Assembly (NCBI GenBank): GCA_041288095.1
Contig: JBGGMJ010000099.1
Span: 1-64,000 of the forward strand
Source of the DNA: Myxococcota bacterium
GTDB lineage: Bacteria; Myxococcota; XYA12-FULL-58-9; JALHOP01
Direction of reading: 5' to 3'
DNA: 64,000 nt
The notes under the pieces were generated by a model. That model was not told the DNA's origin and searched no databases. It saw only the letters and a program-made list of their open reading frames with translations. Positions 1,351 to 43,089 of the stretch are shown here, piece after piece (position 1 is the first letter of the stretch; each line of letters begins with the position of its first letter). The position numbers and the translations under genes were made by a program.

Positions 1351-7736
<6,386 letters not shown>

Positions 7737-7737
<1 letters not shown>

Positions 7738-19998: not shown

Positions 19999-20742
19999 GT
20001 GCTTCAGCAGATGCTCGACTTGTACGAAATTCAAAAGATCGATCTCGGTATCCGCGACGTGCAGAAACGTCTCGACGAGATTCCCAAAGACCTCCGCCGA
20101 CTCGAGTCCCAGACCGGCGACCTGAAGCACGAAGTCGACAAGACCCGTCTCGAGCGCGACGCGCTCCTTCGCGAGATCAAAACTCTCGAAGACAGCGTCG
20201 TGATGGAGAACCAGAAGCACAAGAAGTGGGAATCGCGCCTCGCCGAGATCCGCAACCAACGTGAGTACCTGGCACTCTCCCGCGAGATCGAGGGCGGCAA
20301 GAGGCAGAACCGCGAAGCCGAAGAGAAGGTGCAGGAGCTCAAGAAGCGCCAGGCCGAGCTCGAGAAGAAGCTCGGCGACATGCAGACGCAGGTGTCCTCG
20401 CAAGAAGGCGAAGCCACCAGCGAGCGCACCAAGGTCGACACCGACGTCAACGCGGTGAAGGAAAAGCTCACGAGCGAGACTCAGCGCCGCGACGAGCTGC
20501 TCCCCAAGATTCCGCGGCCGCTGCTCGCCAAGTACGACTCGATCCGGGCCAAGCGCTTGGGCATCGGCATCGTCCCGGTGATCGGTGGCTTGTGCCAGGG
20601 CTGCAACATGCGGATCCCGCCACAGCTCTTCAACATCCTGCAACGCGGCCAAACCGTCGAGCAGTGCCCCAGCTGCCAGCGCATCATCTTCTGGGACAAA
20701 CTCCTCGCCACCGGTGGCACCGCCGCCGCGCCGGCGAGCTAG
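19999..20742 (+). CDS. Coiled-coil protein with C-terminal C4 zinc ribbon (DUF164/CT398-like)
   Basis: LYEIQKID start, long coiled coil, CQGCNMRIPPQ...CPSCQRII. Confidence 0.92.
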   Translation: MLQQMLDLYEIQKIDLGIRDVQKRLDEIPKDLRRLESQTGDLKHEVDKTRLERDALLREIKTLEDSVVMENQKHKKWESRLAEIRNQREYLALSREIEGGKRQNREAEEKVQELKKRQAELEKKLGDMQTQVSSQEGEATSERTKVDTDVNAVKEKLTSETQRRDELLPKIPRPLLAKYDSIRAKRLGIGIVPVIGGLCQGCNMRIPPQLFNILQRGQTVEQCPSCQRIIFWDKLLATGGTAAAPAS

Positions 20743-20761
20743 CCAAAAAAGGCGACCCGCC

Positions 20762-21400
20762 ATGTCGTCACGCCGCCGCCGCGATCCGGATCCGCTCGAG
20801 CTCATCACTTTCATCGCTGATCACGAGTCGCTGACTCTGTCGCGTGACGAGTTCTCGGGTGTGACCGAAGAGCGGCTGCGCTCGATCTTGCGGGCTTTCG
20901 TGGCGGAAGTCACCGGCGTTCCGCCAAAGCGGACGAACCTGGCGGCGGCCACCGTGGCGGCTAAGAACGAGCCCAAGAAGGCGGCGAACCGCGTCGTCCT
21001 CTTCACCGACGGCGCCTCGCGCGGCAATCCCGGCCCAGCCGGCGCTGGCTGGGTGATCACGGACGAGTCCGGCGAGACGCTGGGCAAAGGCGGAGCCTTC
21101 CTCGGCCGCCGCACCAACAACGAAGCCGAATACGAAGCGGTGATCCGCGGACTGCACGCCTGCCTCGAGACCGGCGCCAACGAGGTCTATCTGCGCAGCG
21201 ACAGCGAGCTGCTCGTGAAGCAGATCAACGGCACCTACCGCGTCAAAGAAGAACGTTTGCAGGCGCTCTATCACCAGGCGCGGGAGAAGCTGCAGAAGTT
21301 CCGCCGCTTCGACGTGAAGCATGTACCGCGCGAGCAAAACTCCGCGGCCGATGCTCAGGCGAACCAGGCCATCGACCAGGGCCCGTCGATCGCGGTCTAA
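20762..21400 (+). CDS. rnhA: Ribonuclease HI with an N-terminal extension
   Basis: FTDGASRGNPG, TNNEAEY, SDSELL and HVPREQNSAAD; all four catalytic acidic residues are present. Confidence 0.93.
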   Translation: MSSRRRRDPDPLELITFIADHESLTLSRDEFSGVTEERLRSILRAFVAEVTGVPPKRTNLAAATVAAKNEPKKAANRVVLFTDGASRGNPGPAGAGWVITDESGETLGKGGAFLGRRTNNEAEYEAVIRGLHACLETGANEVYLRSDSELLVKQINGTYRVKEERLQALYHQAREKLQKFRRFDVKHVPREQNSAADAQANQAIDQGPSIAV

Positions 21401-24825: not shown

Positions 24826-26082
24826 TTAGAGGTAGCCCACGAAACCGAGGCCGTGGAGCCGACCGCAGAGCTGTTTGGCGGCCTCCAACGCGTCCGGTCC
24901 GACCAGCTCGGAGAGTGTGAGATTTCCGTTCAAGTTGCGCGCAATGACGGGCCAAAGCCCGCTGGGGTCGGCGAAGGCGTAAGAGCGGTTTTGCTTGCGG
25001 ACCCAAGCGTGGGTCACGGCGCCGTTGCCGTCGCGAGTGTCGGCATGGCAGCCGTACGTCGCGCCGTCGATGAGCAGGGGCTTGGCTTCGTCGGATGGTA
25101 GGTCCGCCTCACGCAGCACTTTCACCGGGTCGAAGGCGCGGATCTGCTTTTCGAGCCAGGCGGTCTCGGCCGAGAGGCGTCCCACCCATACATCTAGATC
25201 GATGCCAATGGCGCTGGCCGCGGCCTGAATGTCCGGGAACTCCGGCATCGGGTCGCAGGCGTAACCGAGCATCCGCATCGGGCCGGCGAGCAGCGGCGCG
25301 AGGAGGATACGCAACTCTGGAGCTAGATCGCGCAAGTAACGATTGCGACGCGGCCCTTGGGCCTGGCTGTGCGAGAAGCCGAGGCTTCCTGGGGCGCCGG
25401 GCATGTCCGTCGTAGCGGTTACGGCCGCGTTTTGGGCCGGGTCGAAGGGCAGCCCGACGAAGCGCATCACTTCCTCGAGACGTTCGCGTGGCTCGGCGAC
25501 CAAGTCTTCGTAGCGCAGCCGCAGGACCTTGTCCGCTCCAGCGAACCGCAAGTCCAAGAATGACCGCGTGACATGGTAATACCAGGCGCAGCCGGCGCGC
25601 AGGTGCGGATGCTCGAAGGTCTGCGCGGCCCAGAGCGACAACGGATCCGGGGCGGGGCCCAGGAGGCGCGGGTGATCTTGCTCCGCTTGCAAGGTGAGGC
25701 GCAGATCTTCCATCGAGCATGTGGTGTCGCGGCCGTCGCGCACGCACTGGATGAAGCGAGCGTCCGGGAAGATGGCGAGCACGTAGTCGACCTGCTGCGA
25801 GAGCGTCGAGATCTTCACGACCAGCTGTGACTTGTTGGCGGCGGCGAGCGCCCTGTCGACCGCGTCGTGATATTCGGCGACGAGCTCCGGCGTGGCGTCA
25901 CGCGCAGTGAGACGGAAGTGATCGTCCTCGCCGTGGCGGTGCGGGAACTTCGCGAGGTCGTGGTGAAAGCGATGCAGCTCCGCGCCCAGCGCGAGCACCC
26001 TGGGGTTAAGCCCCAAGGCGTCGAGCATGAGCGTGGTCCCGCCTCGGGGTGGGCCAATCACGAATATGGGCGAGCGATTCAC
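24826..26082 (-). CDS. Sulfotransferase-family protein with a C-terminal extension
   Basis: PIFVIGPPRGGTTLM (5'-PSB loop), FPDARFI..VRDGRDTTCS (3'-PB) and LRYEDLV..P. GTG start at 26082 inferred because the upstream in-frame sequence is rnpB. Confidence 0.85.
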   Translation of the reverse strand: MNRSPIFVIGPPRGGTTLMLDALGLNPRVLALGAELHRFHHDLAKFPHRHGEDDHFRLTARDATPELVAEYHDAVDRALAAANKSQLVVKISTLSQQVDYVLAIFPDARFIQCVRDGRDTTCSMEDLRLTLQAEQDHPRLLGPAPDPLSLWAAQTFEHPHLRAGCAWYYHVTRSFLDLRFAGADKVLRLRYEDLVAEPRERLEEVMRFVGLPFDPAQNAAVTATTDMPGAPGSLGFSHSQAQGPRRNRYLRDLAPELRILLAPLLAGPMRMLGYACDPMPEFPDIQAAASAIGIDLDVWVGRLSAETAWLEKQIRAFDPVKVLREADLPSDEAKPLLIDGATYGCHADTRDGNGAVTHAWVRKQNRSYAFADPSGLWPVIARNLNGNLTLSELVGPDALEAAKQLCGRLHGLGFVGYL

Positions 26083-26508
26083 CGGAGCCGACCTATAAGC
26101 CGAGTTCTGTGCCGCGACTTGCGCCGCGGTGACGACCATTCCTCTAGGCGCGCGATTACTCGAGCGCTCGAGCTGCCGACCCGAACCGTAGGCCAACGAG
26201 CAGCTGGCTGACACACTTTCCGCCGAAACGGACGGCGTGTCTGACGGTTCCTATTTGACATTGCTCCGAGTGGGGTTTGCCTTGCCGGTCCACGTCTCCG
26301 TAACCGCGGTGCGCTCTTACCGCACCTTTTCACCGTGACCGTCGTGCTTGCGCATTGAGACGGCCGTTTGTTTTCTGTGGCACTTTCCGTCGGGTCGCCC
26401 CGCCTGGCCGTTAGCCAGCACTCTTGCTCTCTGGAGCTCGGACTTTCCTCCCGCGACGCCAGCTCTCGAGAGCGCTGGCGTCACCGGCGGTCATCCAGCC
26501 TGCTCCGG
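26082..26508 (-). ncRNA. rnpB: RNase P RNA (type A)
   Basis: On the - strand: GAGGAAAGTCCG, AGTGCCACAGAAA, GGTGAAAAGGTGCGGTAAGAGCGCACC, GGCAAACCCCAC.CGGAGCAA and ACAGAACTCGGCTTA. P1 is formed by CCGGAGC and GCTCCGG. Confidence 0.96.
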
Positions 26509-29212: not shown

Positions 29213-29998
29213 CTATCCCGCCGGCGAGCCCGCCGACGCCTGCGTGACATTCGCCGCCTTGCGCTTGCGCGCGACGATCCGCGCGCCCAGGATGCCGAGC
29301 TCCCAGAAGAGCACGAGTGGCACCGCCATCAAGCACATGCTGACCGGCGATGGGTCCGCGGTGACCACGCCGCCGATGATGAACGACGCGACCACCCAAT
29401 ACTTGCGCCACTTGGCGAAGCTCGCGGCCGTGACGAGACCCGCCGCCGCGAGGATCCACATGACCAGCGGCAGCTCGAAGACGAAGCCGAAGGCAAGCAG
29501 CATGTGGAACACCAAGTTGAAGTAGGTCTCGACCGAGTACGTGTTCTCGACGCCGACCGGCACCATCGCGGTCAGGTATTTGAACATGTTCGGGATCACC
29601 ACGTAGTAGCCAAAGGCGCCGCCGCCGACGAACGACAGCGTACCCATGATGATGAAGGGCGCGATCCAACGCTTCTCGTGGGAGTAGAGCCCGGGGGCGA
29701 CGAACAGCCACAGCTGCGCGAGCATCCATGGCGCCGTGCCGAAGACGGCCGCTAAAATGGACAGCTTCATGTACGTGAAGACCATCTCGAGCGGCGACAG
29801 CACCACGAGCTTTTGCCCGCCGGTCGCGACGTCGAGTGGCTGGCGCATGATGTTGAAGAGCTCGGGCGCATAGCTGAAGGCCGCGAACGTCGCGACCAAC
29901 AGCACGATCAAGACGTACATGAGGCGCTTGCGCAGCTCGGTCAGGTGCTCGACCAGGCTCATGCGGGATTGGGCGAAGGGGTCGTGCTGGTCGGTCAT
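29213..29998 (-). CDS. tatC: Twin-arginine translocase subunit TatC
   Basis: SLVEHLTELRKRL, QLWLFVAPGLY..EK and FGFVFELP motifs. Confidence 0.96.
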   Translation of the reverse strand: MTDQHDPFAQSRMSLVEHLTELRKRLMYVLIVLLVATFAAFSYAPELFNIMRQPLDVATGGQKLVVLSPLEMVFTYMKLSILAAVFGTAPWMLAQLWLFVAPGLYSHEKRWIAPFIIMGTLSFVGGGAFGYYVVIPNMFKYLTAMVPVGVENTYSVETYFNLVFHMLLAFGFVFELPLVMWILAAAGLVTAASFAKWRKYWVVASFIIGGVVTADPSPVSMCLMAVPLVLFWELGILGARIVARKRKAANVTQASAGSPAG

Positions 29999-30342
29999 GG
30001 CTTGGGCTCGGAGGTGACGGCCGCGCCCGGCTCGGGTGCCGGCGTTGTCGTTTCTGGTGCCACCGGCGAGCCGTCCGCCTGCGGCAGCGGCTCATTCGCG
30101 GCGACGGGCAAGTGCTCGGGCGGCGCCATGCCGATGGCGGCCTTGCGCTCGCGCTCCCGCTCTTCACGCTCTGCCTCCCGCGCCACCTCGTCGAAGGTGT
30201 GCTGCAGGTCGCTCGCGTGACGCCGGAACTCGCGCAGGCCCTTGCCGACTTGGCGGGCGACCTGGGGTAGCTTGGTCGGCCCAAGCACCACGAGGGCGAC
30301 GACCAGGATGATGATGACTTCGCCGACGCCTAAGCCGAGCAT
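29995..30342 (-). CDS. tatB: Twin-arginine translocase subunit TatB (TatA/B family)
   Basis: GEVIIILVVALVVLGPTKLPQVARQVGKGLREFR; 4-nt overlap with tatC. Confidence 0.88.
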   Translation of the reverse strand: MLGLGVGEVIIILVVALVVLGPTKLPQVARQVGKGLREFRRHASDLQHTFDEVAREAEREERERERKAAIGMAPPEHLPVAANEPLPQADGSPVAPETTTPAPEPGAAVTSEPKP

Positions 30343-30424: not shown

Positions 30425-32074
30425 TTAGAGGCCAGTGCCGCTGCCGCTGCGCGAGGGCGAGCTGCTGGACCGGCTCGGCGAGCTGTAGCTCGGCGAGGGG
30501 CTGCTGTACGACGGCGAGCGGCTCGGTGAGCTGTAGCTCGGCGAGCTGCCGAGGCCAGTGCCCGAACCGGAGCTGCGCGGCGGCGTATACGACGGCGGCG
30601 GCGTGTACGACGGCGTGCTGCGCGGCGGCGTGTACGACGGCGACGGCGAGCTGCCGAGACCCGTACCCGAGCCCGAGCTACGCGGCGGGGTATAGGTCGG
30701 CGAGGTCGACGGCGACGGCGACGAGCCTAGGCCCGTGCCACTGCCGCTGCTGCGGGGAGGAAGCCCCGAGCCGGGGCTGGTGCCACCGGGGAGACCGGTG
30801 CCCGAGCCTGGCAGGCCCGTGCCTGAACCCGTCCCCGAGCGGGGCGGCAGGCCCGTACCCGAACCCGGGAGACCCGTGCCCGAGCCCGGAAGACCGGTGC
30901 CCGAGCGGGGCGGCAGACCCGTGCCACTGCCGGGAAGGCCAGTGCCCGAACCCGAACCCGGCAAGCCGGTGCCCGAGCCTGGACGGCGGGGATACGGATC
31001 GAGACCGGTGCCACTGCGACCATCCGGATAGCGGGGGGTCGGGAAGTAGCGGTGGTCACGGTAGTAGTCGGGATAATACTGGTAGTAGTAATCGTGGTAG
31101 CGCGGCTGCGTGAGGCACTGCAGGGTCGAGAGCTGATCGTTCAGCCGCTCCATGCTGTACTGCTGCGCGAGCTGCGTGCGCAGGATCTGCGCCGCCTGGC
31201 TTCCCGGGGGGAAGGTCGACAGGATGGTCTCGAGACGCGCCATGCTCTGCATGCGCTGGCTCTCGAGGTACTGCTGCATGCTCTGGCGCTGCAGGATGTC
31301 GTAGAAGCTGTCGCAGCCGTACATGTTCATCGGCGACCAGAACGACAGGCCGCGCATGAAGATGCCGCGTTGCACGAGCTCCATGAGAACGGCGTCCGCG
31401 AAAGCGGGGCTGTTCGTGGCGTTGAGCGACGACACCGCCAAAGCGATGGTCGACTCGTTGCCCCACGGATACATGCGCTCGAGCACCTGGGCCGCCGCTT
31501 GGGGGCTGCTCATGCCGGAGAGGCTCTGGCGCAGCACCATGTTGAGAGCGCTGCTCTCGTAGCCGCTGGTGCGGTCCATGACCTGCTGCAAGAGGCCCAT
31601 GCTGGCCAAGCGCTCGACGAACGCGCCGCGGATCTCCGGCGGGTAGCGATTGAGGATCGCCAGCGTCTCTTGCTCTTCGGCTTGGTCGAAGCAGAAGAGG
31701 CCGAGGAACGAGCAGCTGTTGAGCATCTGGCTGATGCGGGCCGCGTCGTTCGCCATCTGCGCCTGCAACGACGGGTCGACGATGCGTGAGGCGACGCTTG
31801 GGTCCCAGTACTGGGTGTACTGCGCCAGGGTGACTTCCGGCGCCGCGGTCTCGCGGTTCACGCCAGGGGTAAAGCGCGGCGTCGCGAGGCCGGCAGTCGT
31901 GCTGCGCGGCTGCGCCGTGACGGTGGTGCGCGAGGCGGCATCGGGCTCCGGCGCGCGGAGCGCTTCGGGCGCTGCGGGACGAACCTCGGTGCTCGGAGCC
32001 GCGTCGGTGTTGGCCACCACGCTGCTCGTGCTCGAAACTTGGGGATTTGGCTCGAGAGCCGTCACTGCTGCCAT
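30425..32074 (-). CDS. Hypothetical protein: disordered leader, helical core, Tyr-rich spacer, tail with 13 SGTGL repeats ending at the stop codon
   Basis: AAGGAG RBS about 7 nt before ATG 32074; C-terminus ...SRSGSGTGL*. Confidence 0.82.
   Translation of the reverse strand: MAAVTALEPNPQVSSTSSVVANTDAAPSTEVRPAAPEALRAPEPDAASRTTVTAQPRSTTAGLATPRFTPGVNRETAAPEVTLAQYTQYWDPSVASRIVDPSLQAQMANDAARISQMLNSCSFLGLFCFDQAEEQETLAILNRYPPEIRGAFVERLASMGLLQQVMDRTSGYESSALNMVLRQSLSGMSSPQAAAQVLERMYPWGNESTIALAVSSLNATNSPAFADAVLMELVQRGIFMRGLSFWSPMNMYGCDSFYDILQRQSMQQYLESQRMQSMARLETILSTFPPGSQAAQILRTQLAQQYSMERLNDQLSTLQCLTQPRYHDYYYQYYPDYYRDHRYFPTPRYPDGRSGTGLDPYPRRPGSGTGLPGSGSGTGLPGSGTGLPPRSGTGLPGSGTGLPGSGTGLPPRSGTGSGTGLPGSGTGLPGGTSPGSGLPPRSSGSGTGLGSSPSPSTSPTYTPPRSSGSGTGLGSSPSPSYTPPRSTPSYTPPPSYTPPRSSGSGTGLGSSPSYSSPSRSPSYSSPSPSYSSPSRSSSSPSRSGSGTGL
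30428..31015 (-). repeat. SGTGL peptide-repeat tail (13 copies)
   Basis: Counted in the translation; codons vary between copies. Confidence 0.9.
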
Positions 32075-32089
32075 GATCATTCTCCTTGA

Positions 32090-32117
32090 GTATCTAAATC
32101 GTCGATCGTTGAGTTGT
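32090..32117 (-). promoter_or_regulatory. Degenerate copy of the alternative-sigma motif (ACAACT-N15-TAGATAC)
   Basis: Shares the 11-mer GCAGACAACTC with the copy upstream of 19042. Confidence 0.45.
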
Positions 32118-32203
32118 CTGCTATAGCGGACACTTGCAAGAACGACCGACCGGTGCGAGCGAACTTGCGCGCGCGCGTCACCGGTCAGTCACTCGTTGCT
32201 TGG

Positions 32204-32614
32204 TTACTTCGCGAGGACCTGCCACCAGGGCAGGCCATTGACGTCGTCGGTCTCGCGTTCGACGGCAGGTGCGTTCGCGACGGCGAGAAATTTCTTCGCG
32301 GCCGTGCGACGCATGTCTTCGCTGTTTCTCACCGGTACACCGCGTCCGGGCGCGGGACCGATGATCGCGAACGTATTCATCAGGTCCACTGCAGCGGACT
32401 TACACTGCAATTGTTTGTGCACGTAGAGAGCGCAGCGCATCATCTCCTGCGCGGCCGCGTGAGCGACCTCGTAGGTGGTAAAGCTCTGGAAGAGCTTGAC
32501 GATGGCTTGGCGGCCCTCCGCCGTGACGACGTAGCCTTTGGCTTCGTCTTTTCGCAGTGCGCCCAAGACTACGTCAGCGACGCGTTGCTCGAGCTCGGTG
32601 GGTGGTGGAAGCAT
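32204..32614 (-). CDS. Hypothetical small helical protein
   Basis: 136-aa ORF with host-like codon usage, co-oriented with its neighbours. Confidence 0.65.
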   Translation of the reverse strand: MLPPPTELEQRVADVVLGALRKDEAKGYVVTAEGRQAIVKLFQSFTTYEVAHAAAQEMMRCALYVHKQLQCKSAAVDLMNTFAIIGPAPGRGVPVRNSEDMRRTAAKKFLAVANAPAVERETDDVNGLPWWQVLAK

Positions 32615-32660
32615 TGAAGGTATATCCTGTGGAATTGATGCAGTTCAGTAGCGCTACGAA

Positions 32661-33263
32661 CTAGTCCCAGAACGAGCGGATGGCCTTCTGAGCTTCGGGG
32701 CTCAGATTGCCCGGCTGATCCAGGATCGCGCGGAACTGCTGCTGCTCGGCGTGCGTCAGCTCGCTGCGGCGATCGTTGAACTCTTGCTTCAGAGCGCCAC
32801 GCTCTTCGCCGTCGATGGCGAGGGCGTTGCCCCAGAAGTCGCGCTCGACTTCGCCGTAGCGGTTGAAGAAGCTCGCCTCGACGCCGCGCGCGAAGCCCAG
32901 CACCATGACGGCGCGAGCGTGCGACCCAGCGACCCAGCTAGCGGTCTGGCCAACGGGGCTGGTGAAGCGATCGAGGTAGGGCAAGAGGACGTCACGCGCG
33001 TAGCCCGTGAGGTTCGTCTTCAGCGTCTCGGTGAAGTCATGAACGTCGACCGGGTTCGCGATTGCCGAGCGGCGCTCGTGATACTCCGCGACCATACGGC
33101 CGCTCTCGTCGCCGTTGACGCCGCCGACTTCGCTGCCGCGCACGAACGCAAGCATGCCGACCGCTTGAGCTTTTCCGAGGGTAACTGGATCTGACATTTC
33201 AAACACTCCATCGCATGTCGCAAGCTCTTGTGAGCTTGCAACCTGGGTAACGCCGCGAACCAC
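32661..33263 (-). CDS. Hypothetical protein (alternative start ATG 33197 with a GGAG RBS)
   Basis: ORF with good codon usage; no recognisable motif. Confidence 0.68.
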   Translation of the reverse strand: MVRGVTQVASSQELATCDGVFEMSDPVTLGKAQAVGMLAFVRGSEVGGVNGDESGRMVAEYHERRSAIANPVDVHDFTETLKTNLTGYARDVLLPYLDRFTSPVGQTASWVAGSHARAVMVLGFARGVEASFFNRYGEVERDFWGNALAIDGEERGALKQEFNDRRSELTHAEQQQFRAILDQPGNLSPEAQKAIRSFWD

Positions 33264-33327
33264 TTGATGCGGCTATGTTGGTGGGTTGCGACTCACCCAC
33301 TTGGGGAGCCAGCAACGAGTATCGGGA

Positions 33328-33354
33328 GTATCGAGGGTGCCGCTGTTACGTTGC
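33328..33354 (-). promoter_or_regulatory. Putative alternative-sigma promoter, strong copy (GCAACG-N14-TCGATAC)
   Basis: Upstream of the 33263-32204 genes; a second CCGATAC follows 9 nt later. Confidence 0.6.
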
Positions 33355-33461
33355 TGAAAATGATGCGACGCGTCTGTCAGGCGCTGGCGGCACGTCGATT
33401 CACGAAACGGCGTGACCTCGTCGCGCGACATTAGCCCATTCCCTAAAATTCGGAGCCTTAG

Positions 33462-36026
33462 ATGGCAAGCGCAGCTCAAGTCGGTACGGCAGCGGTCGTA
33501 CCGGACTATTCTCTTTTGGCGGACGAGTCCGTCGCGACGGACACCTCTGTAGCGGCAGAGCAGCCCGCTGACGCACGTGAAACAGCTCGTCCCCGCGCCA
33601 CGTTGACGAACGCCGGCCCCGCAGCCTCGCCGCTCGCCCCCGGTTTCTCGCCCGCGGTCCTGCGCGGCAACGATCGCGCGACGGTCACCCTGGCGGCTAA
33701 TCAAGGCAGCAACGAAGCCGAAGCTCGGCGCTTGTTAGCGACGGTGCAGCAGCGCGCCGCGGCGCTCGTCACCGCGCGCACGGCAACACAATCGCAGACG
33801 CAGACCTTGGTCGGCGGTTTGACGCCTCAGGCAGCGCAGCAGCGCTTCGACGGGACCACCGAAGCCGAAGCCACGACGATCATCGGCAACATCACGCGCC
33901 TGCAGGCTCTGCAGACCGAGCTGGCAGCGAAGATCAAAGAGGTGGAAACCGAGATGCAGCCGGGCTTCGTCGGCCGCATGCGCGGTGACGGCTACTACGC
34001 CTCGCGCGTCGGCATGTTGCGCAACGCCGAGATCCGCGTCGATCGCGGCAGCCAGCTCTACACCTTGTTGGGCGGCACCGGCCGTTACGCCGAGGTCTCG
34101 TTCGAGCAGATCCTCGCCGCCATGGAGCGTCTCGCCGGCAGCACCCGCGAGAGCGTCACTGGTCTCGCCGCGGCACCGAACGCCGCCGAAGCTCACTTCG
34201 TCGAGCTCGATGCGCGCATCAATCGTCTCAAGGCGTCGGCCGATGAGCTCGGCGACGCCTCGACCCCGTTCGGTCTCGCCCAGATCGGCGCCGTCACGGT
34301 GCCGGCCTTGCAACGCCTCGTCGCTCAGCAGCGCGCCGGCGCCGGCCGAGATCCGATGGGAGCGGCGCGCGAGCGTACGATCGCCGTCATGCTCGAGCAG
34401 GCCGAAAGCCTGGTTCGCGTCATGAAAGACGCGCGCGACAAGCTTACCAACGAAGTGCCAGGCGCGATCCGCGCCCTGCAACAGAACGGCGTCCAGACCG
34501 CGTGGGTGGCCAACGCCCTCACCGGGCTCGTCGGCGGCGCCAACCGCATCGCGGAAGGCACCACGCAGGGTGACGTTCGCCCGCAGATCGCGCAGCTCGA
34601 GACCGGCATCGGTCAGCTCCGCGCGGCGCTCAAGAGCGCCGTCGAGCTCAACACCGAGCGCTTGGGACCGGCCACGACCGCGATCGCCGACACCGAGCGT
34701 GCCGTCACCGCGGCTCGCACCCGGATCGGTGGAGCCCTCAAGGTGCAGCCTTCGGCGGTGCTCGCCGAGCAGCAGTACGCTCCCGAGACGTCGATCACCC
34801 GCGCCCGCGAGCGGCTTGGCGACATGCACAAGGCGCTCAACACCGGCGATGTCGCCGCGGCGACCCGCGCCCGCACCGAGAGCGCCGCCGCCTTGCGGCA
34901 GGTGACCGATCTCATCGCCGAGGCCGACCGTTCGGTGGCGACGCATGCCGACACCATCGCGGCACAGCGCCGCCGTCACACCGAGCTGCAGGGCGTCGTC
35001 CAGCAGCGCGGTGAGGTGCTGGTCGGCATGGAGCGCACCTACGCGCAGCAGCTTGCCGAGCCGTCACGCACGGAGCTCGAGCAGAGCGCCGCCGCGCTCG
35101 ACCAGATCCCGGCGCGCATCGACCAGGCGCACACCACGTATTCGCGTGGTGGCGTGGTTGGTGCTTCACGTCAGCTGCAGGGCACCGCCGGTGACCTCGA
35201 CGCGATCTCGCGCCGTCTCGACAGCATCGTCGAGGCGCAGCGTGGTCTCGCGGCGACCGACGCGAGCAACGCGCAGGCAGTGGCGTCGCTTGCTGGCGAG
35301 CTCGCGAACATCCAGCGCTTCGCAGCCGACGGCCGCACCCGCGGTCCGGCCCGCCAGCACGTCGCCACCGCGGCCCGCTCCGTCGAGCAGCTCCGCGCGG
35401 CTATCGCGGCTCCCGGCCGCAACCCGGCCGACCTCGCCCGTGGCATCCAAGAGACCGTCGGCTTTGTCCGCCAGGGCAACGCCGCCATCCAAGCGGACTG
35501 GGCTCTGTACGCGCAAGCGGACAACGCCGTCGACCGCGTGCAGGCGGTGCTGAACGCGCGCGTCATGTTCCAGCGCAACCGCGGCTTCCTCCTCGAGTGG
35601 GCCGTGTGGCAGGGGCAGATCGCCGGCATGCGCCGCGACCTCGCGAACGGCAACTACGAGGGCGTGATCCAGCAGGCTCAGTTCACCGAAGCAGCCGTCG
35701 TCGCCGCCGCGATCGCTGTCGAGCGCGCCGAGCGTGAAGAGCAGGAGCGCATCGAAGCCGAGCAGCGCGCCCGCGAACGCGCCGAGGCCGAAGCCCGCCG
35801 CCGCCGCGAGGAAGCCGAAGAGGCAGAGCGCCAGCGCCGCAACTCATCGTCGGGCACCGGCCTGCCGTCGACGTCGCCGGGCAGCGGCTCGGGTACGGGT
35901 CTGCCGCGCTCGTCGGGCTCCGGCTCCGGCACCGGCTTGCCGTCGTCCTCACCGTCGACGCCGTCGCGTTCGGGCACCGGCCTGCCGAGCAGCAGCCCAC
36001 CGCGCTCCTCGGGCACCGGCCTGTAA
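33462..36026 (+). CDS. Large helical/coiled-coil hypothetical protein with a disordered leader, E/R-rich helix and tail of 5 SGTGL repeats ending at the stop codon
   Basis: GGAG RBS; C-terminus ...PPRSSGTGL*. Confidence 0.85.
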   Translation: MASAAQVGTAAVVPDYSLLADESVATDTSVAAEQPADARETARPRATLTNAGPAASPLAPGFSPAVLRGNDRATVTLAANQGSNEAEARRLLATVQQRAAALVTARTATQSQTQTLVGGLTPQAAQQRFDGTTEAEATTIIGNITRLQALQTELAAKIKEVETEMQPGFVGRMRGDGYYASRVGMLRNAEIRVDRGSQLYTLLGGTGRYAEVSFEQILAAMERLAGSTRESVTGLAAAPNAAEAHFVELDARINRLKASADELGDASTPFGLAQIGAVTVPALQRLVAQQRAGAGRDPMGAARERTIAVMLEQAESLVRVMKDARDKLTNEVPGAIRALQQNGVQTAWVANALTGLVGGANRIAEGTTQGDVRPQIAQLETGIGQLRAALKSAVELNTERLGPATTAIADTERAVTAARTRIGGALKVQPSAVLAEQQYAPETSITRARERLGDMHKALNTGDVAAATRARTESAAALRQVTDLIAEADRSVATHADTIAAQRRRHTELQGVVQQRGEVLVGMERTYAQQLAEPSRTELEQSAAALDQIPARIDQAHTTYSRGGVVGASRQLQGTAGDLDAISRRLDSIVEAQRGLAATDASNAQAVASLAGELANIQRFAADGRTRGPARQHVATAARSVEQLRAAIAAPGRNPADLARGIQETVGFVRQGNAAIQADWALYAQADNAVDRVQAVLNARVMFQRNRGFLLEWAVWQGQIAGMRRDLANGNYEGVIQQAQFTEAAVVAAAIAVERAEREEQERIEAEQRARERAEAEARRRREEAEEAERQRRNSSSGTGLPSTSPGSGSGTGLPRSSGSGSGTGLPSSSPSTPSRSGTGLPSSSPPRSSGTGL
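35850..36023 (+). repeat. SGTGL peptide-repeat tail (5 copies)
   Basis: Counted in the translation. Confidence 0.9.
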
Positions 36027-36145: not shown

Positions 36146-37879
36146 CTAGCTCGGTAGACTCTGTTCCAGTTGTTCGAGCTGCCTCATCGAATCACCGACG
36201 AGGCGCTCGAGCGATCGGCACACCTCGACGCTGCGCTCGGTCGCCGTCTTCACCTGCGTCGACGCCGCCGAGGCGCGATCGTTGCCGCGGTACAGCGCCT
36301 GCAACGCCTGCGTGATCTGCTCGACCATGTCGCGAATGTTCTCGATCGCCTCGGTCATCTGACGGCCGCCGCGGTTCTGCTCTTCGGTGGAGCGCTCGAC
36401 CTGTTGCGTGATCACCTTCATGCGCTCGGCGCTCTTCATGATCTGCTCGGAGCCCTTGGCCTGCTCGGCGGTCGCTAGAGCGATCTGCTGCACGGTCTCG
36501 GCGATGCGGCTGATGGCGTTGGTGACCTGCTTCGAGCCCTTCGATTGCTCGACCGTCGCTTGCGCGATCGCCTTGATCATCAAGGTCGAGCGCTTCGCGG
36601 ACTCGACGATCTTGCGCAGGGCGTCTTCGGCGTTGTGGCCGAGGCGAACGCCTTCTTCGACGTCTTCGACGCCCTGGGACATGACTTGAATGGCGTTGCG
36701 CGACTCGTCCTGCACCGCCTTGATGAGCTCGGCGATCTCCTTGGTGGACGAGCCCGTGCGCTCCGCCAGCGCCTTGATCTCGTCGGCAACGACCGCGAAC
36801 CCGCGTCCGTGCTCGCCCGCCTGTGCCGCGATGATCGCCGCGTTCAAGGCGAGGAGGTTCGTCTGCTCGGCGACGTCGTCGATGACCGTGAGGATGTTGC
36901 CGATCTCGTCGATCTTCTGACCCAGATTGCCGATGACCTCGGCGGCGACGCGCGAGGACTCCTTGATCTTGTCGATGCCGTTGATGGTCTTGTTGATCGC
37001 GGACACGCCTGTCTCGGCGTCGCTGGTGACCGTCTCCGACAGCTTCGAAGTCTCGTTGGCGTTGGTCTCGACCTGGCTGATCGAGACGTCCATCTCGTTC
37101 ATCGACGCCGCGGTTTCCTCGGCGGCGGTGGACAGCTCTTCGATGTTCTTCGCGACTTCCTTCACCGAGAAGGTCATCTCCTCGATCGCGGTCGTGGTCT
37201 CCTGCACCGACAAGGCGAGGTTGTGGATGTTCTCGGTCACCTCGGTGTTGATGGCGACCATCTGCAAGATCGACGAGCTCGTGGCTTCGGCGCTGCGTGA
37301 CAGGCCGTCGATACCCTCGGTGATGTGCCGGTGCGAGCCCATGCTCTCTTCGACGGCGCGCGCGCCATCGCCGGCGGCGTTGCTTTGCAGCGACAGGCTC
37401 TCGCCCAACGTCGTGAGCGAGGTGCCCAGTGAGTCGAGGTTGTTGCGTTGGCCGCGGCTGCTGTTCTTGGCCTGCGAGCTACGCTCGACCATGCGGGCGA
37501 GGGCGTCTTCGCCGATTCGACTGATGTGTCCGCTATTGCGGGCCTCGTGCATGGCGCCAGCGAAGTCGCCTCGCGCCAAGCGTTCGGCGAAAGCATCGAG
37601 GCTGACGGGGGGCGCGATGGCGCGGCGCAGGCGCTGCCACAAGATGCCGGCGCCGATGACCGCGCCGGCGAGTCCCGACCAGAAGAACAGGCGCGTGACG
37701 CGCTCGGCGAGCTGGCCGACCGCGGCCCCGGCTTCGTCGATCAGCGAGCCGGAGACGGCGCTGGCGGCGAGGAGCGCGATGGCGATGGGGATGAAGCTGA
37801 CTGCGATGATCGCGGCGCCGGTCGCCTGACGTGGCTGCGCTCGAACACCGCTGGTGCCGGGTGGCGATAAGGATGTCAC
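36146..37879 (-). CDS. Methyl-accepting chemotaxis protein with a very short periplasmic loop
   Basis: Two TM helices and the hairpin-tip motif IDDVAEQTNLLALNAAIIAAQAGEHGRGFAVVADEIKALAERT. Confidence 0.93.
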   Translation of the reverse strand: MTSLSPPGTSGVRAQPRQATGAAIIAVSFIPIAIALLAASAVSGSLIDEAGAAVGQLAERVTRLFFWSGLAGAVIGAGILWQRLRRAIAPPVSLDAFAERLARGDFAGAMHEARNSGHISRIGEDALARMVERSSQAKNSSRGQRNNLDSLGTSLTTLGESLSLQSNAAGDGARAVEESMGSHRHITEGIDGLSRSAEATSSSILQMVAINTEVTENIHNLALSVQETTTAIEEMTFSVKEVAKNIEELSTAAEETAASMNEMDVSISQVETNANETSKLSETVTSDAETGVSAINKTINGIDKIKESSRVAAEVIGNLGQKIDEIGNILTVIDDVAEQTNLLALNAAIIAAQAGEHGRGFAVVADEIKALAERTGSSTKEIAELIKAVQDESRNAIQVMSQGVEDVEEGVRLGHNAEDALRKIVESAKRSTLMIKAIAQATVEQSKGSKQVTNAISRIAETVQQIALATAEQAKGSEQIMKSAERMKVITQQVERSTEEQNRGGRQMTEAIENIRDMVEQITQALQALYRGNDRASAASTQVKTATERSVEVCRSLERLVGDSMRQLEQLEQSLPS

Positions 37880-39112: not shown

Positions 39113-41083
39113 CTACAGAACTTGTTGAATTTTGAGGGGAATCGTCACCTGAAAGTCTTTTTGGGGGTGCCTGTGGAAGCGCAGGGATCGCAGGGTCTTG
39201 TCGAGGCATCGGCTCACCACCTCGACCTCGACGGCGGGGGCGAGGCTCACGTTCGAGACCCTCCCGGTCGGCTCGATGGTCAAGCGAGCGTCCACTTTAG
39301 CGGGCGCCTTGGCCCCTTCGAACTTCTGTAGACACTGCGCTATTTGCTGCGAGCTGCGTTGCACTACCGCCTGAATCTCCGGGCCGGTGAGCGGTGTTTC
39401 ACGGCCGGCGGGGCGTGGCGCGGGATCGTCGCCGCCACATTCCATGCTCTTGGGCTGGGGCAAGCTCACCACGGTCTCGAAGACCGGCGTCGCCGTTGGG
39501 CGAAAGAGCATCTCGGTGAGCACGTCTTGGACGCAACCGCCCGCGCGGCCGAGCTTCTCCGCGGCCGGAGTCAACGCGACGCTGACGACGCCGCCGGTGG
39601 AGACGATGGCCACTTTCGCGGATAGCTGCTCGACGGCTTTGAGCTCCTTGACCGCGGCGCAGTAGCACTCGCGTATGCGGGTGGTTTCGCCTTTGATGGC
39701 GAGCTCGACCTCGGCGGTCGTGAGCGGCGTGAGGCGCGGGTCGGCCGGTGTCGGCGCGGCCTGGGTCGGCGGTTGCGTGACCACGGCGGCGGTCGGCGTG
39801 CCGGTGCGTCGCGCCACCTCCTCGGCGATCAAGGGCCAGCCGGCCACGAGCCCGACGGCTATGGTGGCGACCGCGGCGAGGGCCACGATCGGCCACATGC
39901 GGCGCTTGCCGGTCGGCGCCGGTGCTCCCCTTGGGCGCTCGAGGAAGTCACCGATGGGTTGCAGCTGGTCGTCGGGAATCGCCGAGTCGCGCGCGTCGAC
40001 CGGTGTCGGTGCCCGCTCGCTCGCTTTCACGGCTTCGTCGAAAAACTCGGGGTGCTCGTGAAAATACGTGCGTGCCGCGCGCCCCAGCTCGTCCACGGTG
40101 CGCGGGTAGATGGCCTGCACCAGTCCGTTGTAGAAGTCGTCCGCTTTGGCGTACCGAGCGTCGGGTTCGCGCGCGAGGCCCTTGTGCAAGGTCTTCTCGA
40201 TGCCCGGCGAGACATCGTTGCGAATGGCGCCGAGCGGTGGGATGCGCGCCTCCGCGATCAGGCGGAAGGTATCGACCTCGTCGACGCCCTTGAAGAGGCG
40301 GCGGGCGGCGAGCGACTCCCACAAGAGAATGCCGGCGCAGAAGATGTCGACGCGCTGGTCGGGGGCGCGGCCGCTGAGCTGCTCCGGCGCGATGTACCCG
40401 AGCTTGCCCTTGATCATGCCGGGGCTCGTCGTCGAGATCTCGTTGCGGGCCTTGGCGATACCGAAGTCGGTGATCTTCACCCATGCGTCGGGCGTCACCA
40501 GGATGTTCTGCGGCGTGATGTCGCGATGCAGGATGTGCATCGGCTCGCCGCCGGCGTCGCGCAGGTCGTGGGCGTAAGCCAAGCCCTTGAGCACCTGCAT
40601 GGTGATGAAGACGGCGACGTCGACGGGCAGGCGGACGCCGTTGTTGTAGCAGACCTCGAGCAGGTGCCCGACGTTGGTGCCGGGCACGAACTCCATGGCG
40701 ATGTAGTAGTCGGAGCCCTCGCGCGCCAGATCGTAGACCTGGACGATATTGGGGTGGTTCAAGAGGACGGTGAGCTTCGCCTCCTTCACCATCATGTCGA
40801 TGAAGGCACGGTCGGCCGCGAGGTGCGGCAGCATCTTCTTGATGGCGACCTCGCGCTCGAAGCCCTCGATTCCGCCTGCCTTGGCGTAGAAGATCTCGCC
40901 CATGCCACCGACGGCGATGCGGCGCGCGAGCTGATATTTGCCCAGGCGTTGCGGCCCGGTGCCCGAGGCGTCGCGTGTCAGACGTAGCCGCGCTCCGCAA
41001 ACGCACCTGACGACTTTGGGTAGCGGTGTGCGCTCGCCGTCGACGTCGAAGTGACGCCCGCAGGAGGAGCAGTTGATCTCCAC
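39113..41083 (-). CDS. Membrane Ser/Thr protein kinase with an N-terminal zinc ribbon and two periplasmic AgmX/PglI-C-like (TonB-C-like) domains
   Basis: CSSC...CVC, GGMGEIF, VAIKK, HRDITPQN, DFG and APE motifs; one TM helix; two repeats of I..C......G.V..V......C.....F. Confidence 0.9.
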   Translation of the reverse strand: MEINCSSCGRHFDVDGERTPLPKVVRCVCGARLRLTRDASGTGPQRLGKYQLARRIAVGGMGEIFYAKAGGIEGFEREVAIKKMLPHLAADRAFIDMMVKEAKLTVLLNHPNIVQVYDLAREGSDYYIAMEFVPGTNVGHLLEVCYNNGVRLPVDVAVFITMQVLKGLAYAHDLRDAGGEPMHILHRDITPQNILVTPDAWVKITDFGIAKARNEISTTSPGMIKGKLGYIAPEQLSGRAPDQRVDIFCAGILLWESLAARRLFKGVDEVDTFRLIAEARIPPLGAIRNDVSPGIEKTLHKGLAREPDARYAKADDFYNGLVQAIYPRTVDELGRAARTYFHEHPEFFDEAVKASERAPTPVDARDSAIPDDQLQPIGDFLERPRGAPAPTGKRRMWPIVALAAVATIAVGLVAGWPLIAEEVARRTGTPTAAVVTQPPTQAAPTPADPRLTPLTTAEVELAIKGETTRIRECYCAAVKELKAVEQLSAKVAIVSTGGVVSVALTPAAEKLGRAGGCVQDVLTEMLFRPTATPVFETVVSLPQPKSMECGGDDPAPRPAGRETPLTGPEIQAVVQRSSQQIAQCLQKFEGAKAPAKVDARLTIEPTGRVSNVSLAPAVEVEVVSRCLDKTLRSLRFHRHPQKDFQVTIPLKIQQVL

Positions 41084-41139
41084 GGCTCGAACTTCCCACA
41101 GAGCGGCACACGAGGCCAGGAAAGCTGCGTCTCGGCTGA

Positions 41140-43089
41140 CTAGCGCTTGAGCTCGCGCAAGTAGAAGCGCTGCACCCCGTCCGCCGCCTGGGTGCGATAG
41201 ACGAGGTTGCGCTCGCCGTGTGGCAGCGTCACCGCGACCTTGAAGCGCCCCTTCGAGTCGAGGTCGGCCTGCTTGCCGTTGATGAACAGGCGGGCTCCGA
41301 GCGCGAGCTCGCCCATCGTGGTCACCCGGTCGCCGGTCACCCGTTGCCCGCTCTTTGGCGCGCGGATCACCAGGTCGTTGATGACGTTGTCGTAGGCGAT
41401 CTCGAGACCATTGGTGCGGCCGGTACCGCCGATGGCCTTGCCCGCGGCGTCGACGGCGGAGACCAGCCAGAAGTACTTCCCGTCCTCGAGAGCGCCGGCC
41501 TGAAAAGCGAGGCTCGTGTTCTCGCTGGTCGCTTCGAGGTGCGGCCGCTCGAAGGCGCCATCGGCGAAGATCTTCACTCGGTACTGCACCGCGCCCGCTA
41601 CCGCCTTCCACTGGAAGGTGATGGCGGGAAGCGCCTGCTGGAAATAGACGACCGTCTTCTCGCCCGTGTCCTGAATGATGTTCGTGCGTTTGCAGTTGGC
41701 GCAGTCGTTTTCACCGCCGCGCTGGATGAGCAGTGAGCCTTCGCGCACCGCGTCGCCGCCTTTGACGCGCCAGAAATAGCGACCCGGCTTGAAGGCGTCG
41801 TACACGAACCCGGCTTTGCGGACGGTTTCGCTGAAGACCACGTCCTTGAACGCCTTGTCGGAGGCGACGGTGATCTGCGCGCTCGCGACCGCGTTGTCGG
41901 TGGTCTCGGCGCGCCAGTCGAAGGCCACCGGCGGGACCGACCCCTGGTAGTAGACGACCGACGTGGTGCCGGCGCGCAGCTCGACGTCCGCCGCCGCGAC
42001 CGGACGGGTGTCGCTCACCGGCTTGCCGTCCTTGACCGTGATAGCGGTGCCGGCGTCGAGCTCGGTGCCATCCGACAAACGCACGCGGCCGAACCGCACC
42101 CCAACCTCGTAGGCGCCGCCGCTGATCGCGCGCAGCTCGACTTCGGCCTCGCGGTCGCCGGGGCGCACGTCGACGCCGAGTCCCGCGACCGTGACCTCGT
42201 GGCTCGCCTCCACGCCTTCGCGGCGCGTGAGGCGCAGGTCGGCCGCGCCCGCGGTCACCACGTAGCGCGCCTTCTGCTGTTTGTCGCTCCCTTGAGCCTC
42301 CTCGAAGCGGAGCTCGGCGCCGGGAGACAGCGCCACCGTAGAGCCGTCGTCGAAACGCACCTGCGTGCCCTTGGCCTTGCGTGTGCGCACACCAGCGCCT
42401 GGCTCGAGCTCTTGCCGGCTCTCCGCCGCCACCCAGTCGCTGACACTGGAGGTCTGAACCTGCACGCCGCGCGAAGCGATGAGTGTCGCGCGTTGCGGCT
42501 TGAGTGTCGTCGTGAGCCCCGCGACCTCGAGGTTGACGCCGGCGGCGATCGGTACGACGAGACCATCGATCGACAAGGCGTTGCCCGCGGCCAGCGTGGT
42601 GCTCGTGCCGTCCCTGACCACGGTGACCTCGCCGACGAGCACCGACAGTCCTCGTGACAGATCGACGTCGACGACGAGCTCGCTGCTACCGAGCTCGGTC
42701 ATACCGAAGGGAGAGCCGATGACCAGCAAGCTCGTGGCGCCCGGCGAGGCGGCCCGAGCGCTACCGGTGATGACGACGGCACCGAGCGTGGTCCCGGTGG
42801 CCCCGCCACGACGGATGACCACGGTGGTCGACGGCGCCAGGGTCAGGGTGTTGCCGCCGGCGAAGGCGAGGATGACGTGACCGTCCGCTCCAGTGGACAC
42901 GGTGTCGGTCTCGTAGAGGCCGGTGTTGACCGTCGCGTCGAGCGCCGCTCCGCTTCCACCTTTACGGACACTCGCCTCGCCGTCTCGCGAGGTGATGGTG
43001 GCGTCGGGCGGCGGACGATTGTGGCAGGCGGTGGCGAGCAGCGCGGTGCTCACCATTGCCATGCCGACCCATCGTTGAAGAACCCTCAT
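41140..43089 (-). CDS. Predicted lipoprotein with two FecR-like domains and FnIII/Ig-like C-terminal domains
   Basis: LLATAC lipobox; DTVSTGADG; GRYFWRV and GKYFWLV. Confidence 0.78.
   Translation of the reverse strand: MRVLQRWVGMAMVSTALLATACHNRPPPDATITSRDGEASVRKGGSGAALDATVNTGLYETDTVSTGADGHVILAFAGGNTLTLAPSTTVVIRRGGATGTTLGAVVITGSARAASPGATSLLVIGSPFGMTELGSSELVVDVDLSRGLSVLVGEVTVVRDGTSTTLAAGNALSIDGLVVPIAAGVNLEVAGLTTTLKPQRATLIASRGVQVQTSSVSDWVAAESRQELEPGAGVRTRKAKGTQVRFDDGSTVALSPGAELRFEEAQGSDKQQKARYVVTAGAADLRLTRREGVEASHEVTVAGLGVDVRPGDREAEVELRAISGGAYEVGVRFGRVRLSDGTELDAGTAITVKDGKPVSDTRPVAAADVELRAGTTSVVYYQGSVPPVAFDWRAETTDNAVASAQITVASDKAFKDVVFSETVRKAGFVYDAFKPGRYFWRVKGGDAVREGSLLIQRGGENDCANCKRTNIIQDTGEKTVVYFQQALPAITFQWKAVAGAVQYRVKIFADGAFERPHLEATSENTSLAFQAGALEDGKYFWLVSAVDAAGKAIGGTGRTNGLEIAYDNVINDLVIRAPKSGQRVTGDRVTTMGELALGARLFINGKQADLDSKGRFKVAVTLPHGERNLVYRTQAADGVQRFYLRELKR

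Follow-up and report, generated by a model that had tools for sequence, protein, structure and literature searches.

A repeated terminal SGTGL pentapeptide on two unrelated neighbouring proteins of an uncultured Myxococcota bacterium: a possible cluster-private docking tag

Much of the organisation of eukaryotic cells relies on short linear motifs carried by disordered tails. Only a few such motifs are understood in bacteria: the tips of FtsZ and of the single-stranded DNA-binding protein (SSB), encapsulin cargo peptides, and the pentapeptide of chemoreceptors. We describe here a pentapeptide, SGTGL, repeated on two proteins that are encoded side by side in a 64,000-nucleotide stretch (the window) of contig JBGGMJ010000099.1 from a Myxococcota bacterium (assembly GCA_041288095.1). 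The window is a core chromosomal stretch carrying serS, recA, dnaG, rpoD, ggt, tatAC, deaD, and an alpha-2-macroglobulin gene, and the source genome measures 5.85 Mb (66% GC, 212 contigs, 90% complete). The SGTGL module comprises four genes, with those for protein A, P0003, and P0004 on the minus strand and that for protein B on the plus strand. Protein A (30425–32080) has 551 residues when read from the ATG at 32080; the start at 32074 given in the original prediction is likelier, since the orthologues begin MAAVTAL. Protein B (33462–36026) has 854 residues. The two small genes said to lie between A and B are indeed there: P0003 (32204–32614, minus strand; 136 residues), the best conserved gene of the cluster with 90–96% identity in the genus, and P0004 (32661–33263, minus strand), which has 200 residues by its open reading frame (ORF) and about 178 from a conserved ATG at 33197 that is probably its start. 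Both products are soluble by prediction.

A carries 13 copies of SGTGL and B carries five, and each protein ends in SGTGL followed by TAA; both the counts and the exact terminal position had been claimed beforehand and were confirmed on the ORFs. The tail of A (residues 356–551; 30425–31015, minus strand) has a dense zone with a period of 7 to 8 residues (PGSGTGL or PPRSGTGL), then a sparse zone (SSGSGTGLGSSPSYTPPRS...), and its last copy, at 30428–30442, abuts the stop codon at 30425–30427. The tail of B (residues 797–854; 35850–36026, plus strand) holds all five of its copies and the stop codon. When each tail was shuffled 20,000 times at its own composition, the mean number of copies was 0.023 for A (maximum 2, against 13 observed) and 0.009 for B (maximum 1, against 5 observed), and for either tail 2 of the 20,000 shuffles ended in SGTGL. 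A six-frame scan of the 212 contigs found at least one SGTGL in 18 stop-to-stop ORFs of at least 40 residues; among these, more than one copy was seen only in A and B, and so was a terminal copy. Even a terminal TGL was found only in B among 6775 coding-like ORFs, A having been excluded by the GC2 filter (GC at second codon positions). The SGTGL pattern is real and far beyond chance.

In its extended form, the motif reads [PR/G]-S-G-T-G-L and either continues with P or G or closes the protein. Leucine is practically the only hydrophobic residue of the tails; all five leucines of the B tail and 13 of the 14 in the A tail lie inside the motif. The spacers are made of S, P, R, and G, as claimed, but they also hold Y and T. 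Among the sparse copies of the A tail (window 30425–30800), for example, they read SPSYTPPRS, PPPSYTPP, or SPSYSSPS and are kept in orthologues; these spacers bear a likeness to PPxY motifs and to the YSPTSPS heptad of RNA polymerase II. At the DNA level, each of the 13 copies in A is a different 15-mer, with serine written as AGT, AGC, TCG, or TCA and leucine as CTC, TTG, CTT, CTG, or CTA, which bears out the earlier remark that codons differ among copies. Over the 68 copies of eight genes in four genus genomes, serine is TCG in 44, TCC in 8, AGC in 7, AGT in 5, TCA in 3, and TCT in 1, and leucine is CTG in 21, CTC in 20, CTT in 12, TTG in 8, and CTA in 7. Both serine codon families are used, and when the first copies of orthologues, or the last ones, are compared between genomes, they show synonymous differences.

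We compared 13 A- and B-type sequences, namely the eight genus orthologues from these four genomes together with P0005, P0006, P0008, P0012, and P0013. All 13 end in SGTGL, including the A-type P0006 (63% identity over the whole protein and 58% over the body) and the B-type P0008, P0012, and P0013, the last of which is 51–53% identical. Tail length ranges from 26 to 253 residues and copy number from 3 to 13. Among 106 copies of GTGL, the preceding residue is S in 104 and T in 2, and what follows is P (60), G (25), the end of the protein (13), D (4), or E (4); near-variants (SGSGL, TGTGL, SSTGL, SGTG[ST]) are few. Judged from these comparisons, SGTGL is kept by selection on the peptide and not on the DNA. 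The proposal of a selected short linear motif is therefore supported, as GTGL and the terminal leucine are kept while spacers and copy number drift. Neither of the outcomes named in advance as speaking against it, tails free of constraint or a single recent duplication of DNA, was seen in the homologues.

Most holders of the sequence are labelled as soil metagenomes. The wider locus was found in only three genus-mate genomes, on genome contigs, and in one close relative, on metagenome contigs. A protein search with the tail alone returned two A-type proteins from 7999 scored; B was not recovered, so this search does not exclude proteins with few copies. Genomes of the phylum were also scanned at the DNA level for three GTG[L/F] codon groups (YTN also reads Phe), and 30 of the 401 sampled genomes matched, 26 of them outside the genus. 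Among the matches listed, none of the 26 loci translated from outside the genus encodes a protein that ends in SGTGL; these loci were off-frame, internal and G-rich, or low in GC at third codon positions. In the titles and opening parts of abstracts that were listed, SGTGL was not found as a bacterial protein motif, and the opening parts of abstracts on myxococci held nothing relevant on short linear motifs or disordered C-terminal tails.

Protein A consists of a disordered leader of about 80 residues, a helical body (residues ~80–345), a Tyr-rich stretch (327–351), and an S/G/P/T tail of about 200 residues. The body is predicted to be an all-helical repeat that closes in a long hairpin (predicted local distance difference test [pLDDT], 78) and contains two invariant cysteines, Cys256 and Cys322 (C185 and C251 in alignment A3). 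A VIA wide search with the body gave Z scores of at most 9.0, confined to the helical hairpin 163–263 and in the range that is generic for helical proteins; on the predicted model, the body is a novel all-helical domain. The Tyr/Arg/Asp-rich stretch (31027–31101; RYHDYYYQYYPDYYRDHRYFPTPRY) stands just before the tail.

Against 1.84 billion cluster representatives, the A-body profile found six proteins: P0005, a close A relative; P0014, a repeat artefact; and P0015, P0016, P0017, and P0018, which are remote (21–24% identity in alignment A3; BLASTP from A, 7e-18 for P0016 to 1e-9). P0016 ends ...TPRSGTGL with a single copy, and P0019, 88% identical to it, ends ...APRTGTGL; for these two, the identity to the A body is about 28% and the profile E value 1e-12. 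P0020 (54% identical to P0016) has one internal copy (...VSGTGLPSS...) followed by about 50 more residues. Others end differently: P0017 on the second of two SDQDG[YH]TT[IL]D units, P0018 on the final N[QES]RP unit (NQRP) of a series, and in P0015 the tail is absent. Since remote A-body relatives also end on SGTGL, this end is older than the genus. On the same sequences, a free SGTGL end is usual and not obligatory, and members of the A family tend to close with a short repeat peculiar to their lineage. We define this unnamed family here by profiles A2, A3, and A7; its signature combines a helical body, two invariant cysteines, FPP and R...C motifs, a disordered leader, and a short-motif tail. 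Matches to the A-body profile are rare (7 of the 401 phylum genomes; 6 of 22 genomes of the class), and weak matches in the genomes G034, G025, and G010 cover a sub-domain only. Near their N-termini, the remote relatives P0016, P0018, and P0020 have an EF-hand-like loop (e.g., DVDLDGHINATD and DDDQNGVLNADD), which A lacks.

Protein B is built differently. In its AlphaFold2 model (pLDDT, 79), residues 83–787 are long helices forming a rod that ends in an E/R-rich helix, and residues 1–80 and 790–854 are disordered (pLDDT, ~30). Its best Foldseek match was the EzrA cytoplasmic domain 4uxv, with an E value of 0.011, where the tool's line is 0.001 (probability, 1.00; template modelling [TM] scores, 0.25 and 0.37 over 510 columns). 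On this model, B shows a weak fold resemblance to EzrA and not membership of its family. By sequence, B could not be placed in EzrA (PF06160), a spectrin-like rod with an N-terminal membrane anchor, as Pfam gave 0 families at E ≤1, and phmmer of B against PDB sequences likewise gave 0 matches at E ≤1. An EzrA-type N-terminal membrane anchor was also rejected, no 19-residue window of B exceeding a hydropathy of 1.39. The rod is distantly related (24–28% identity) to longer paralogues and relatives, such as G000:C169 (L016 4–3045) in the source genome and G029:C68 (L015 88–4149), which, by eye, have an extra N-terminal domain and hydrophobic membrane-anchor-like stretches before the rod. Each of these relatives closes its disordered S/G tail with a hydrophobic residue (...TSEF for G000:C169 and ...SSSTW for G029), and hydrophobic-ended disordered tails may be a wider habit of the B-rod family.

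One alternative is that no specific partner exists. The tails would then be entropic or elastomeric low-complexity spacers, or would associate with themselves as prion-like or Tyr/Arg-rich domains do, and SGTGL would be a repeat unit fixed by expansion. Their S/G/P/T composition and predicted disorder agree with such a role, as do the drift of copy number and tail length among orthologues, the S/G tails of B relatives that end in F or W, and the Tyr-rich segment found ahead of the tail both in A and in a 406-residue protein of a sister cluster (see below). We nevertheless consider this explanation unlikely. All five residues are near-perfectly kept despite heavy synonymous change, their exact terminal placement is conserved, and a single copy is retained in remote relatives. 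Moreover, the same motif stands on two unrelated proteins and occurs multiply or terminally nowhere else in the genome.

The leaders of A and B are alike in being disordered, about 80 residues long, and rich in S, T, A, and P. BLASTP of the first 100 residues of A and B aligned them with 17 of 38 identities, at an E value of 0.011 for that single comparison; the resemblance that had been noted between the leaders is thus real but weak. The segments concerned are TAQPRSTTAGLATPRFTPGVNRETA in A (residues ~55–79; 31843–31917, minus strand) and TARPRATLTNAGPAASPLAPGFSPAVLRGNDRATVTLA in B (residues 41–78; 33582–33695, plus strand). None of A, B, P0003, and P0004 has a family in Pfam, NCBIfam, or PADLOC, the sole library rows being CobT (E value, 0.063) and DUF3106 (0.061), neither of which passes the cut-off; in these scans, the small genes are orphans, as they had been called. 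No 19-residue window in any of the four proteins has a Kyte-Doolittle hydropathy above 1.39, which falls short of 1.6, so none has a signal peptide or membrane helix. P0003 looks helical and carries 17 K+R against 15 D+E. Its best match among PDB sequences, the VPS4A MIT domain (E value, 0.63), was not significant, and an assignment as an MIT domain was rejected; the only PDB sequence match of P0004 had an E value of 1.8. In the ESM Atlas, P0004 had no usable match, and those of P0003 were all below 0.8, with TM below 0.5.

Such leaders, with small conserved genes beside both A and B and no Sec or Tat signal or membrane segment, would also be expected if A and B were substrates of a non-Sec secretion system, e.g., a type III secretion system (T3SS). 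The leader would then be a secretion or chaperone region, the small genes chaperones, and the tail a second signal or a part acting outside. Parts of a non-flagellar T3SS are in fact present in the genome, with SctV on contig C31 (FHIPEP/SctV; E value, 2.9e-240; G000:C31:3248–5395) and SctN, SctL, YscO, and SctJ on C92, and tatA/B (29995–30342) and tatC (29213–29998, the sole TatC of the genome) are the next genes downstream of A, likewise on the minus strand. The T3SS genes, however, are on other contigs than the cluster, and P0003 is not acidic and looks helical, unlike class I chaperones, which are small acidic alpha/beta proteins that bind their substrates at residues of about 20–100. The twin-arginine motif is absent; as Tat substrates, A and B were rejected because neither leader has an RR followed by a hydrophobic stretch. 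The adjacency of A and tatAC is retained across the genus, but as it was not seen among the 13 genes scanned in two sister clusters, it is probably an incidental feature of the surroundings. NCBIfam has models of known C-terminal sorting domains (PEP-CTERM, GlyGly-CTERM, MYXO-CTERM, LPXTG, and the type IX secretion system C-terminal domain), and these gave 0 families for A and B at E ≤1. In addition, the B paralogues that carry the rod behind a membrane-anchor-like stretch suggest a cell-internal role, with a topology that we presume from TPM-type proteins. Export of A and B is thus improbable in our estimate. The T3SS region on C92 (G000:C92:8001–26000, L066) contains genes for a T3SS ATPase, FliH/SctL, and YscO-like, YscJ/SctJ, FliG-like, and FliK-like proteins, and interspersed with the T3SS genes of this genome are a GNAT gene and one for a RelA/SpoT-like/DUF4781 protein.

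Two other families of the same order, represented by genomes G004 and G005, have clusters in which the A-body profile matches only part of a protein. In G004 (L073), this is a 763-residue protein (E value, 5e-14 over about 130 positions of profile A7) with three KDG-x-T-x-NP[YF] units, ending ...KDGGTKNPF. Two further proteins of this cluster carry the repeat: a 406-residue protein (L073 3241–4461), with about eight NPY units and the end ...GGTKNPYGR, and a 178-residue protein, with three units and the end ...KDGGSKNPF. The three genes are adjacent on one strand, the repeat KDG-x-[TS]-x-NP[YF] is common to all three products, and their tails match one another by BLASTP (E values, 5.5e-8 and 9e-7). 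The 406-residue protein is unrelated to A, and its NPY tail is preceded by a Tyr-rich stretch (YDPGWYWRYDLPYGVPDYYHRHYYDYRPS) much like that of A. Paralogous genes of 77 and 94 residues are interleaved in the cluster, and a pair of genes for an extracytoplasmic function sigma factor and its anti-sigma factor diverges from it. Across the G004 genome, NPF followed by a stop occurs at two sites, both within the cluster.

In G005 (L074), the A-related protein has 622 residues (E value, 3e-8), with five GGGTPDPT[DE]PPP units and the end ...GGGSNPF, and its gene is preceded by a gene for a 675-residue coiled-coil protein and followed by genes of 179 and 123 residues. NPF before a stop is found there in one real ORF, that of the A-related protein, the other site being a 5-residue ORF; the end-motif in G005 is therefore on the A-related protein only. 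As read from these genomes, a cluster-exclusive terminal motif on unrelated neighbours occurs twice, as SGTGL in the genus and as KNPF in G004. The G004 small genes match the 179-residue protein of G005 with an E value of 0.0028, which is only suggestive, and B against the 675-residue coiled-coil protein gave 0.16. The G005 protein that has the EF-hand-like loop (L074 4231–6099) ends in NPF; NPF is the classical ligand of EH domains, which are EF-hand pairs.

The G004 cluster is met by a convergent Peptidase_S41 gene (L073, G004:C65, 36–1472, plus strand; Pfam E value, 5e-35). By eye, its product has no signal peptide but a disordered leader, and it shares EPGVSV with the leader of the 763-residue protein. 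A peptidase at this place recalls an explanation in which SGTGL is a C-terminal degron or processing site, the end being read by a tail-specific or PDZ protease and the internal copies serving as successive sites of cleavage or re-binding, so that the tails would be trimmed in a timed manner or short peptides set free. This would fit the exact terminal position, which is kept in all 13 sequences and in P0016 and P0019, and the regular period of the dense zone in A; there are, besides, four S41 homologues in the source genome, of which the one on C82, read as a stop-to-stop ORF, lacks a hydrophobic N-terminal signal by eye. In the four genus genomes, however, the SGTGL cluster neither contains nor adjoins an S41 or PDZ gene, and it has no peptide-maturation enzyme of its own. 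The motif of P0020 is internal and has no free end, and 13 selected copies are hard to explain by a degron alone. We hold this explanation, too, to be an improbable one.

A change of motif from SGTGL to NPF also bears on whether S-G-T-G is an acceptor of modification, its serine and threonine being phosphorylated or glycosylated, with leucine for recognition by the enzyme and the tails as regulated or decorated polymers. The invariant Ser/Thr pair in each motif suggests this, and exchanges of S for T and T for S (TGTGL and SGSGL) are tolerated in orthologues. Genes for a Ser/Thr kinase (39113–41611, beyond B) and for a sulfotransferase-family protein (24826–26214, minus strand, ~4 kb from A) lie within 10 kb of the cluster, and S-G-x-G resembles the attachment pattern of eukaryotic glycosaminoglycans. 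Modification would, however, leave unexplained both the placement on the last five residues and the swap to NPF, whose core has no Ser or Thr. The kinase family is common in the phylum, and the position of the kinase gene relative to the cluster differs in another genus genome (G003). On balance, a role as modification acceptor seems improbable to us.

Our preferred reading, which we put forward tentatively, is that SGTGL may be a cluster-private, multivalent docking tag that joins A and B at one site, with the reader encoded within the module. In this proposal, each SGTGL would act as a single hydrophobic sticker on a polar, disordered tail, always including the protein end. The tag would tie A, a helical-repeat protein, and B, an EzrA-like rod, to a common binding site, most likely on a folded part of the module (the A body, the B rod, P0003, or P0004), and the result would be a higher-order cytoplasmic scaffold. 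That SGTGL binds something, what it binds, and that assembly is the outcome are what we infer from a motif that is selected, terminal, multivalent, set in disorder, present on two co-located proteins, and swapped in sister clusters, all of which points to a docking motif with a private reader. With only two clients in the genome, a private partner is suggested rather than a general pathway with many clients. The segment shared by the two leaders is what two clients of one partner might show. The original prediction of a C-terminal docking or sorting tag common to cluster mates gains weight from P0016, which ends PRSGTGL, and from the sister clusters, which have a different terminal motif, NPF.

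Several observations weigh against this proposal. No binding partner of SGTGL was found: a peptide-binding fold is not recognisable in P0003 or P0004, structural searches with the A body gave no significant neighbour (best Foldseek E value, 0.26), and the B tail (790–854) shows no bump in pLDDT and is undocked on its own rod in the AlphaFold2 model. A co-fold of the A body, P0004, P0003, and the B tail (790–854) scored 0.24 and 0.25, under the mark of 0.32, which counts neither for nor against the proposal. Homology between P0003 or P0004 and the small genes of G004 and G005 is not established (E values, 0.055, 0.15, and 0.31), and so a reader conserved across clusters is not shown. One weak hydrophobic residue per motif offers little binding energy, and the terminal placement could come in part from an origin of the tail repeats by end duplication. 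All the sequences, finally, are from uncultured organisms.

Docking peptides at the end of disordered tails are a known kind of design, and SGTGL can be set beside several systems, to none of which it belongs. The NWETF pentapeptide of the chemoreceptors Tar and Tsr, which docks CheR and CheB, is likewise a five-residue C-terminal end on a disordered linker; it is aromatic (xWxxF), single-copy, and found on methyl-accepting chemotaxis proteins (MCPs), whereas SGTGL is non-aromatic, has 5 to 13 copies, and is found on other proteins. The C-terminal peptide of FtsZ (bound by EzrA, FtsA, ZipA, and SepF) and the SSB tip share the order of folded body, disordered linker, and terminal peptide, but they are single-copy and universal in their families, in contrast to the multi-copy, cluster-private, lineage-changing SGTGL, and no link of SGTGL with FtsZ is shown. 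Encapsulin cargo peptides are likewise short, lineage-variable, G/S/L-rich C-termini on unrelated operon mates that target one structure; unlike the A tail, they are not known to be tandemly repeated 13 times. A role as encapsulin cargo was rejected, as no Linocin_M18 (PF04454) was found in the 90%-complete genome or the cluster in a search confined to that family, which matched in 3 of 14 genomes used as controls. The Rubisco-binding motif of algal pyrenoids, EPYC1, and CsoS2 offer a further likeness, with one motif repeated on disordered regions of several unrelated proteins, often at the exact C-terminus, for multivalent targeting to one assembly. These eukaryotic or carboxysomal scaffolds have a known receptor, Rubisco, whereas SGTGL has only two clients and no carbon-fixation genes nearby. 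LPXTG, PEP-CTERM, GlyGly-CTERM, and MYXO-CTERM are also lineage-specific C-terminal signatures on a set of proteins, but they combine a motif, a transmembrane helix, and a basic tail on Sec-exported proteins, whereas SGTGL forms the last residues of proteins with neither helix nor signal peptide.

The class I PDZ motif (x-S/T-x-hydrophobic-COOH) is fitted by T-G-L in all 13 sequences and in P0016 and P0019, which is a pattern match only. The suggestion of a PDZ-like ligand thus stands in that the ends fit, but its strict form, which needs a free carboxylate, is weakened: internal SGTGL copies are followed by P or G and have none, and the copy of P0020 is internal only. No PDZ gene was seen among the scanned genes of the window, and no genome-wide PDZ search was made. 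Read as mimicry of eukaryotic motifs, the tails would belong to effectors with host or prey targets, T-G-L-COOH being a PDZ ligand, PPPSY and PPTY WW ligands, and NPF an EH ligand. The patterns are present in the tails and a T3SS is present in the genome, but such short patterns are expected in S/P/Y-rich sequence, the soil labels of most holders give no sign of host association, and the kinship of B with membrane-anchor-like paralogues points to a housekeeping role. We regard mimicry as very improbable. An explanation that we have not considered may also apply, though we give this little weight.

The docking proposal can be extended, as a possible but rather doubtful generalisation, to a cluster-private address tag of Myxococcota: a fast-evolving, repeated end-motif that would co-evolve with a co-encoded reader to build a multivalent scaffold or condensate, the leader motif marking the same clients. 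Two other families would have [ST]-x-NPF where the genus has SGTGL, and relatives known from metagenomes would have repeats of their own. The tagged folds would be unrelated, with the helical-repeat protein and the EzrA-like rod joined by a Tyr-rich and a small globular protein of the sister lineages, and the candidate readers would be the small helical proteins or the helical-repeat body. Judged against the libraries and literature searched, novelty lies in the motif and the protein families, in a multivalency of 13 copies, in use that is private to a cluster, and in the natural swap of motifs. The case is unusually clean, with one pentapeptide in 18 copies on exactly two unrelated neighbouring proteins, and the SGTGL/NPF swap is a ready-made specificity experiment in which the reader would be the co-encoded protein that tracks the swap. 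Such a protein, once identified, would represent a new peptide-recognition module and a new way of wiring private bacterial assemblies, and would give a function to two orphan families, to the EzrA-like rod family, and to the hydrophobic-ended S/G-rich tails of B relatives. If nothing binds, strong purifying selection on a bacterial disordered repeat would still need an explanation.

Beyond B, the window continues with an MCP gene (36146–37879), whose product ends ...SLPS, and a FecR-like gene. A scan for promoters and terminators gave 0 promoter-like sites and four terminator-like sites, against 3.5 expected. In a metatranscriptome run labelled as soil, P0003 and P0004 are covered together (32178–33302) by a 1151-nucleotide contig that belongs to a close relative and has 86 differences, and short contigs of 158–180 nucleotides fall on the coding region of A; the presence of a contig in an RNA library is no proof of transcription. 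The longer contig stops 26 nucleotides beyond the P0003 stop codon, beside adapter-like letters, and this end hints that P0004 and P0003 form a transcript separate from A. In RNA-library run X7, parts of the stretch are without cover, and DNA runs with a small share are mostly of other organisms.

Three further observations concern single genes. In G001, a 418-residue gene that looks sulfotransferase-like by eye (L019 605–1861) lies at a similar distance from the A cluster as the sulfotransferase-family gene of the window. A 1362-residue protein encoded 23 kb from the cluster (3652–7740, minus strand) has an N-terminal zinc ribbon and a C-terminal array of tetratricopeptide repeats, and such arrays are capable of reading terminal peptides. 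Lastly, a 271-residue ORF (20585–21400, plus strand) has an RVT_3/RNase H domain (E value, 9e-30) behind an N-terminal extension of about 130 residues.

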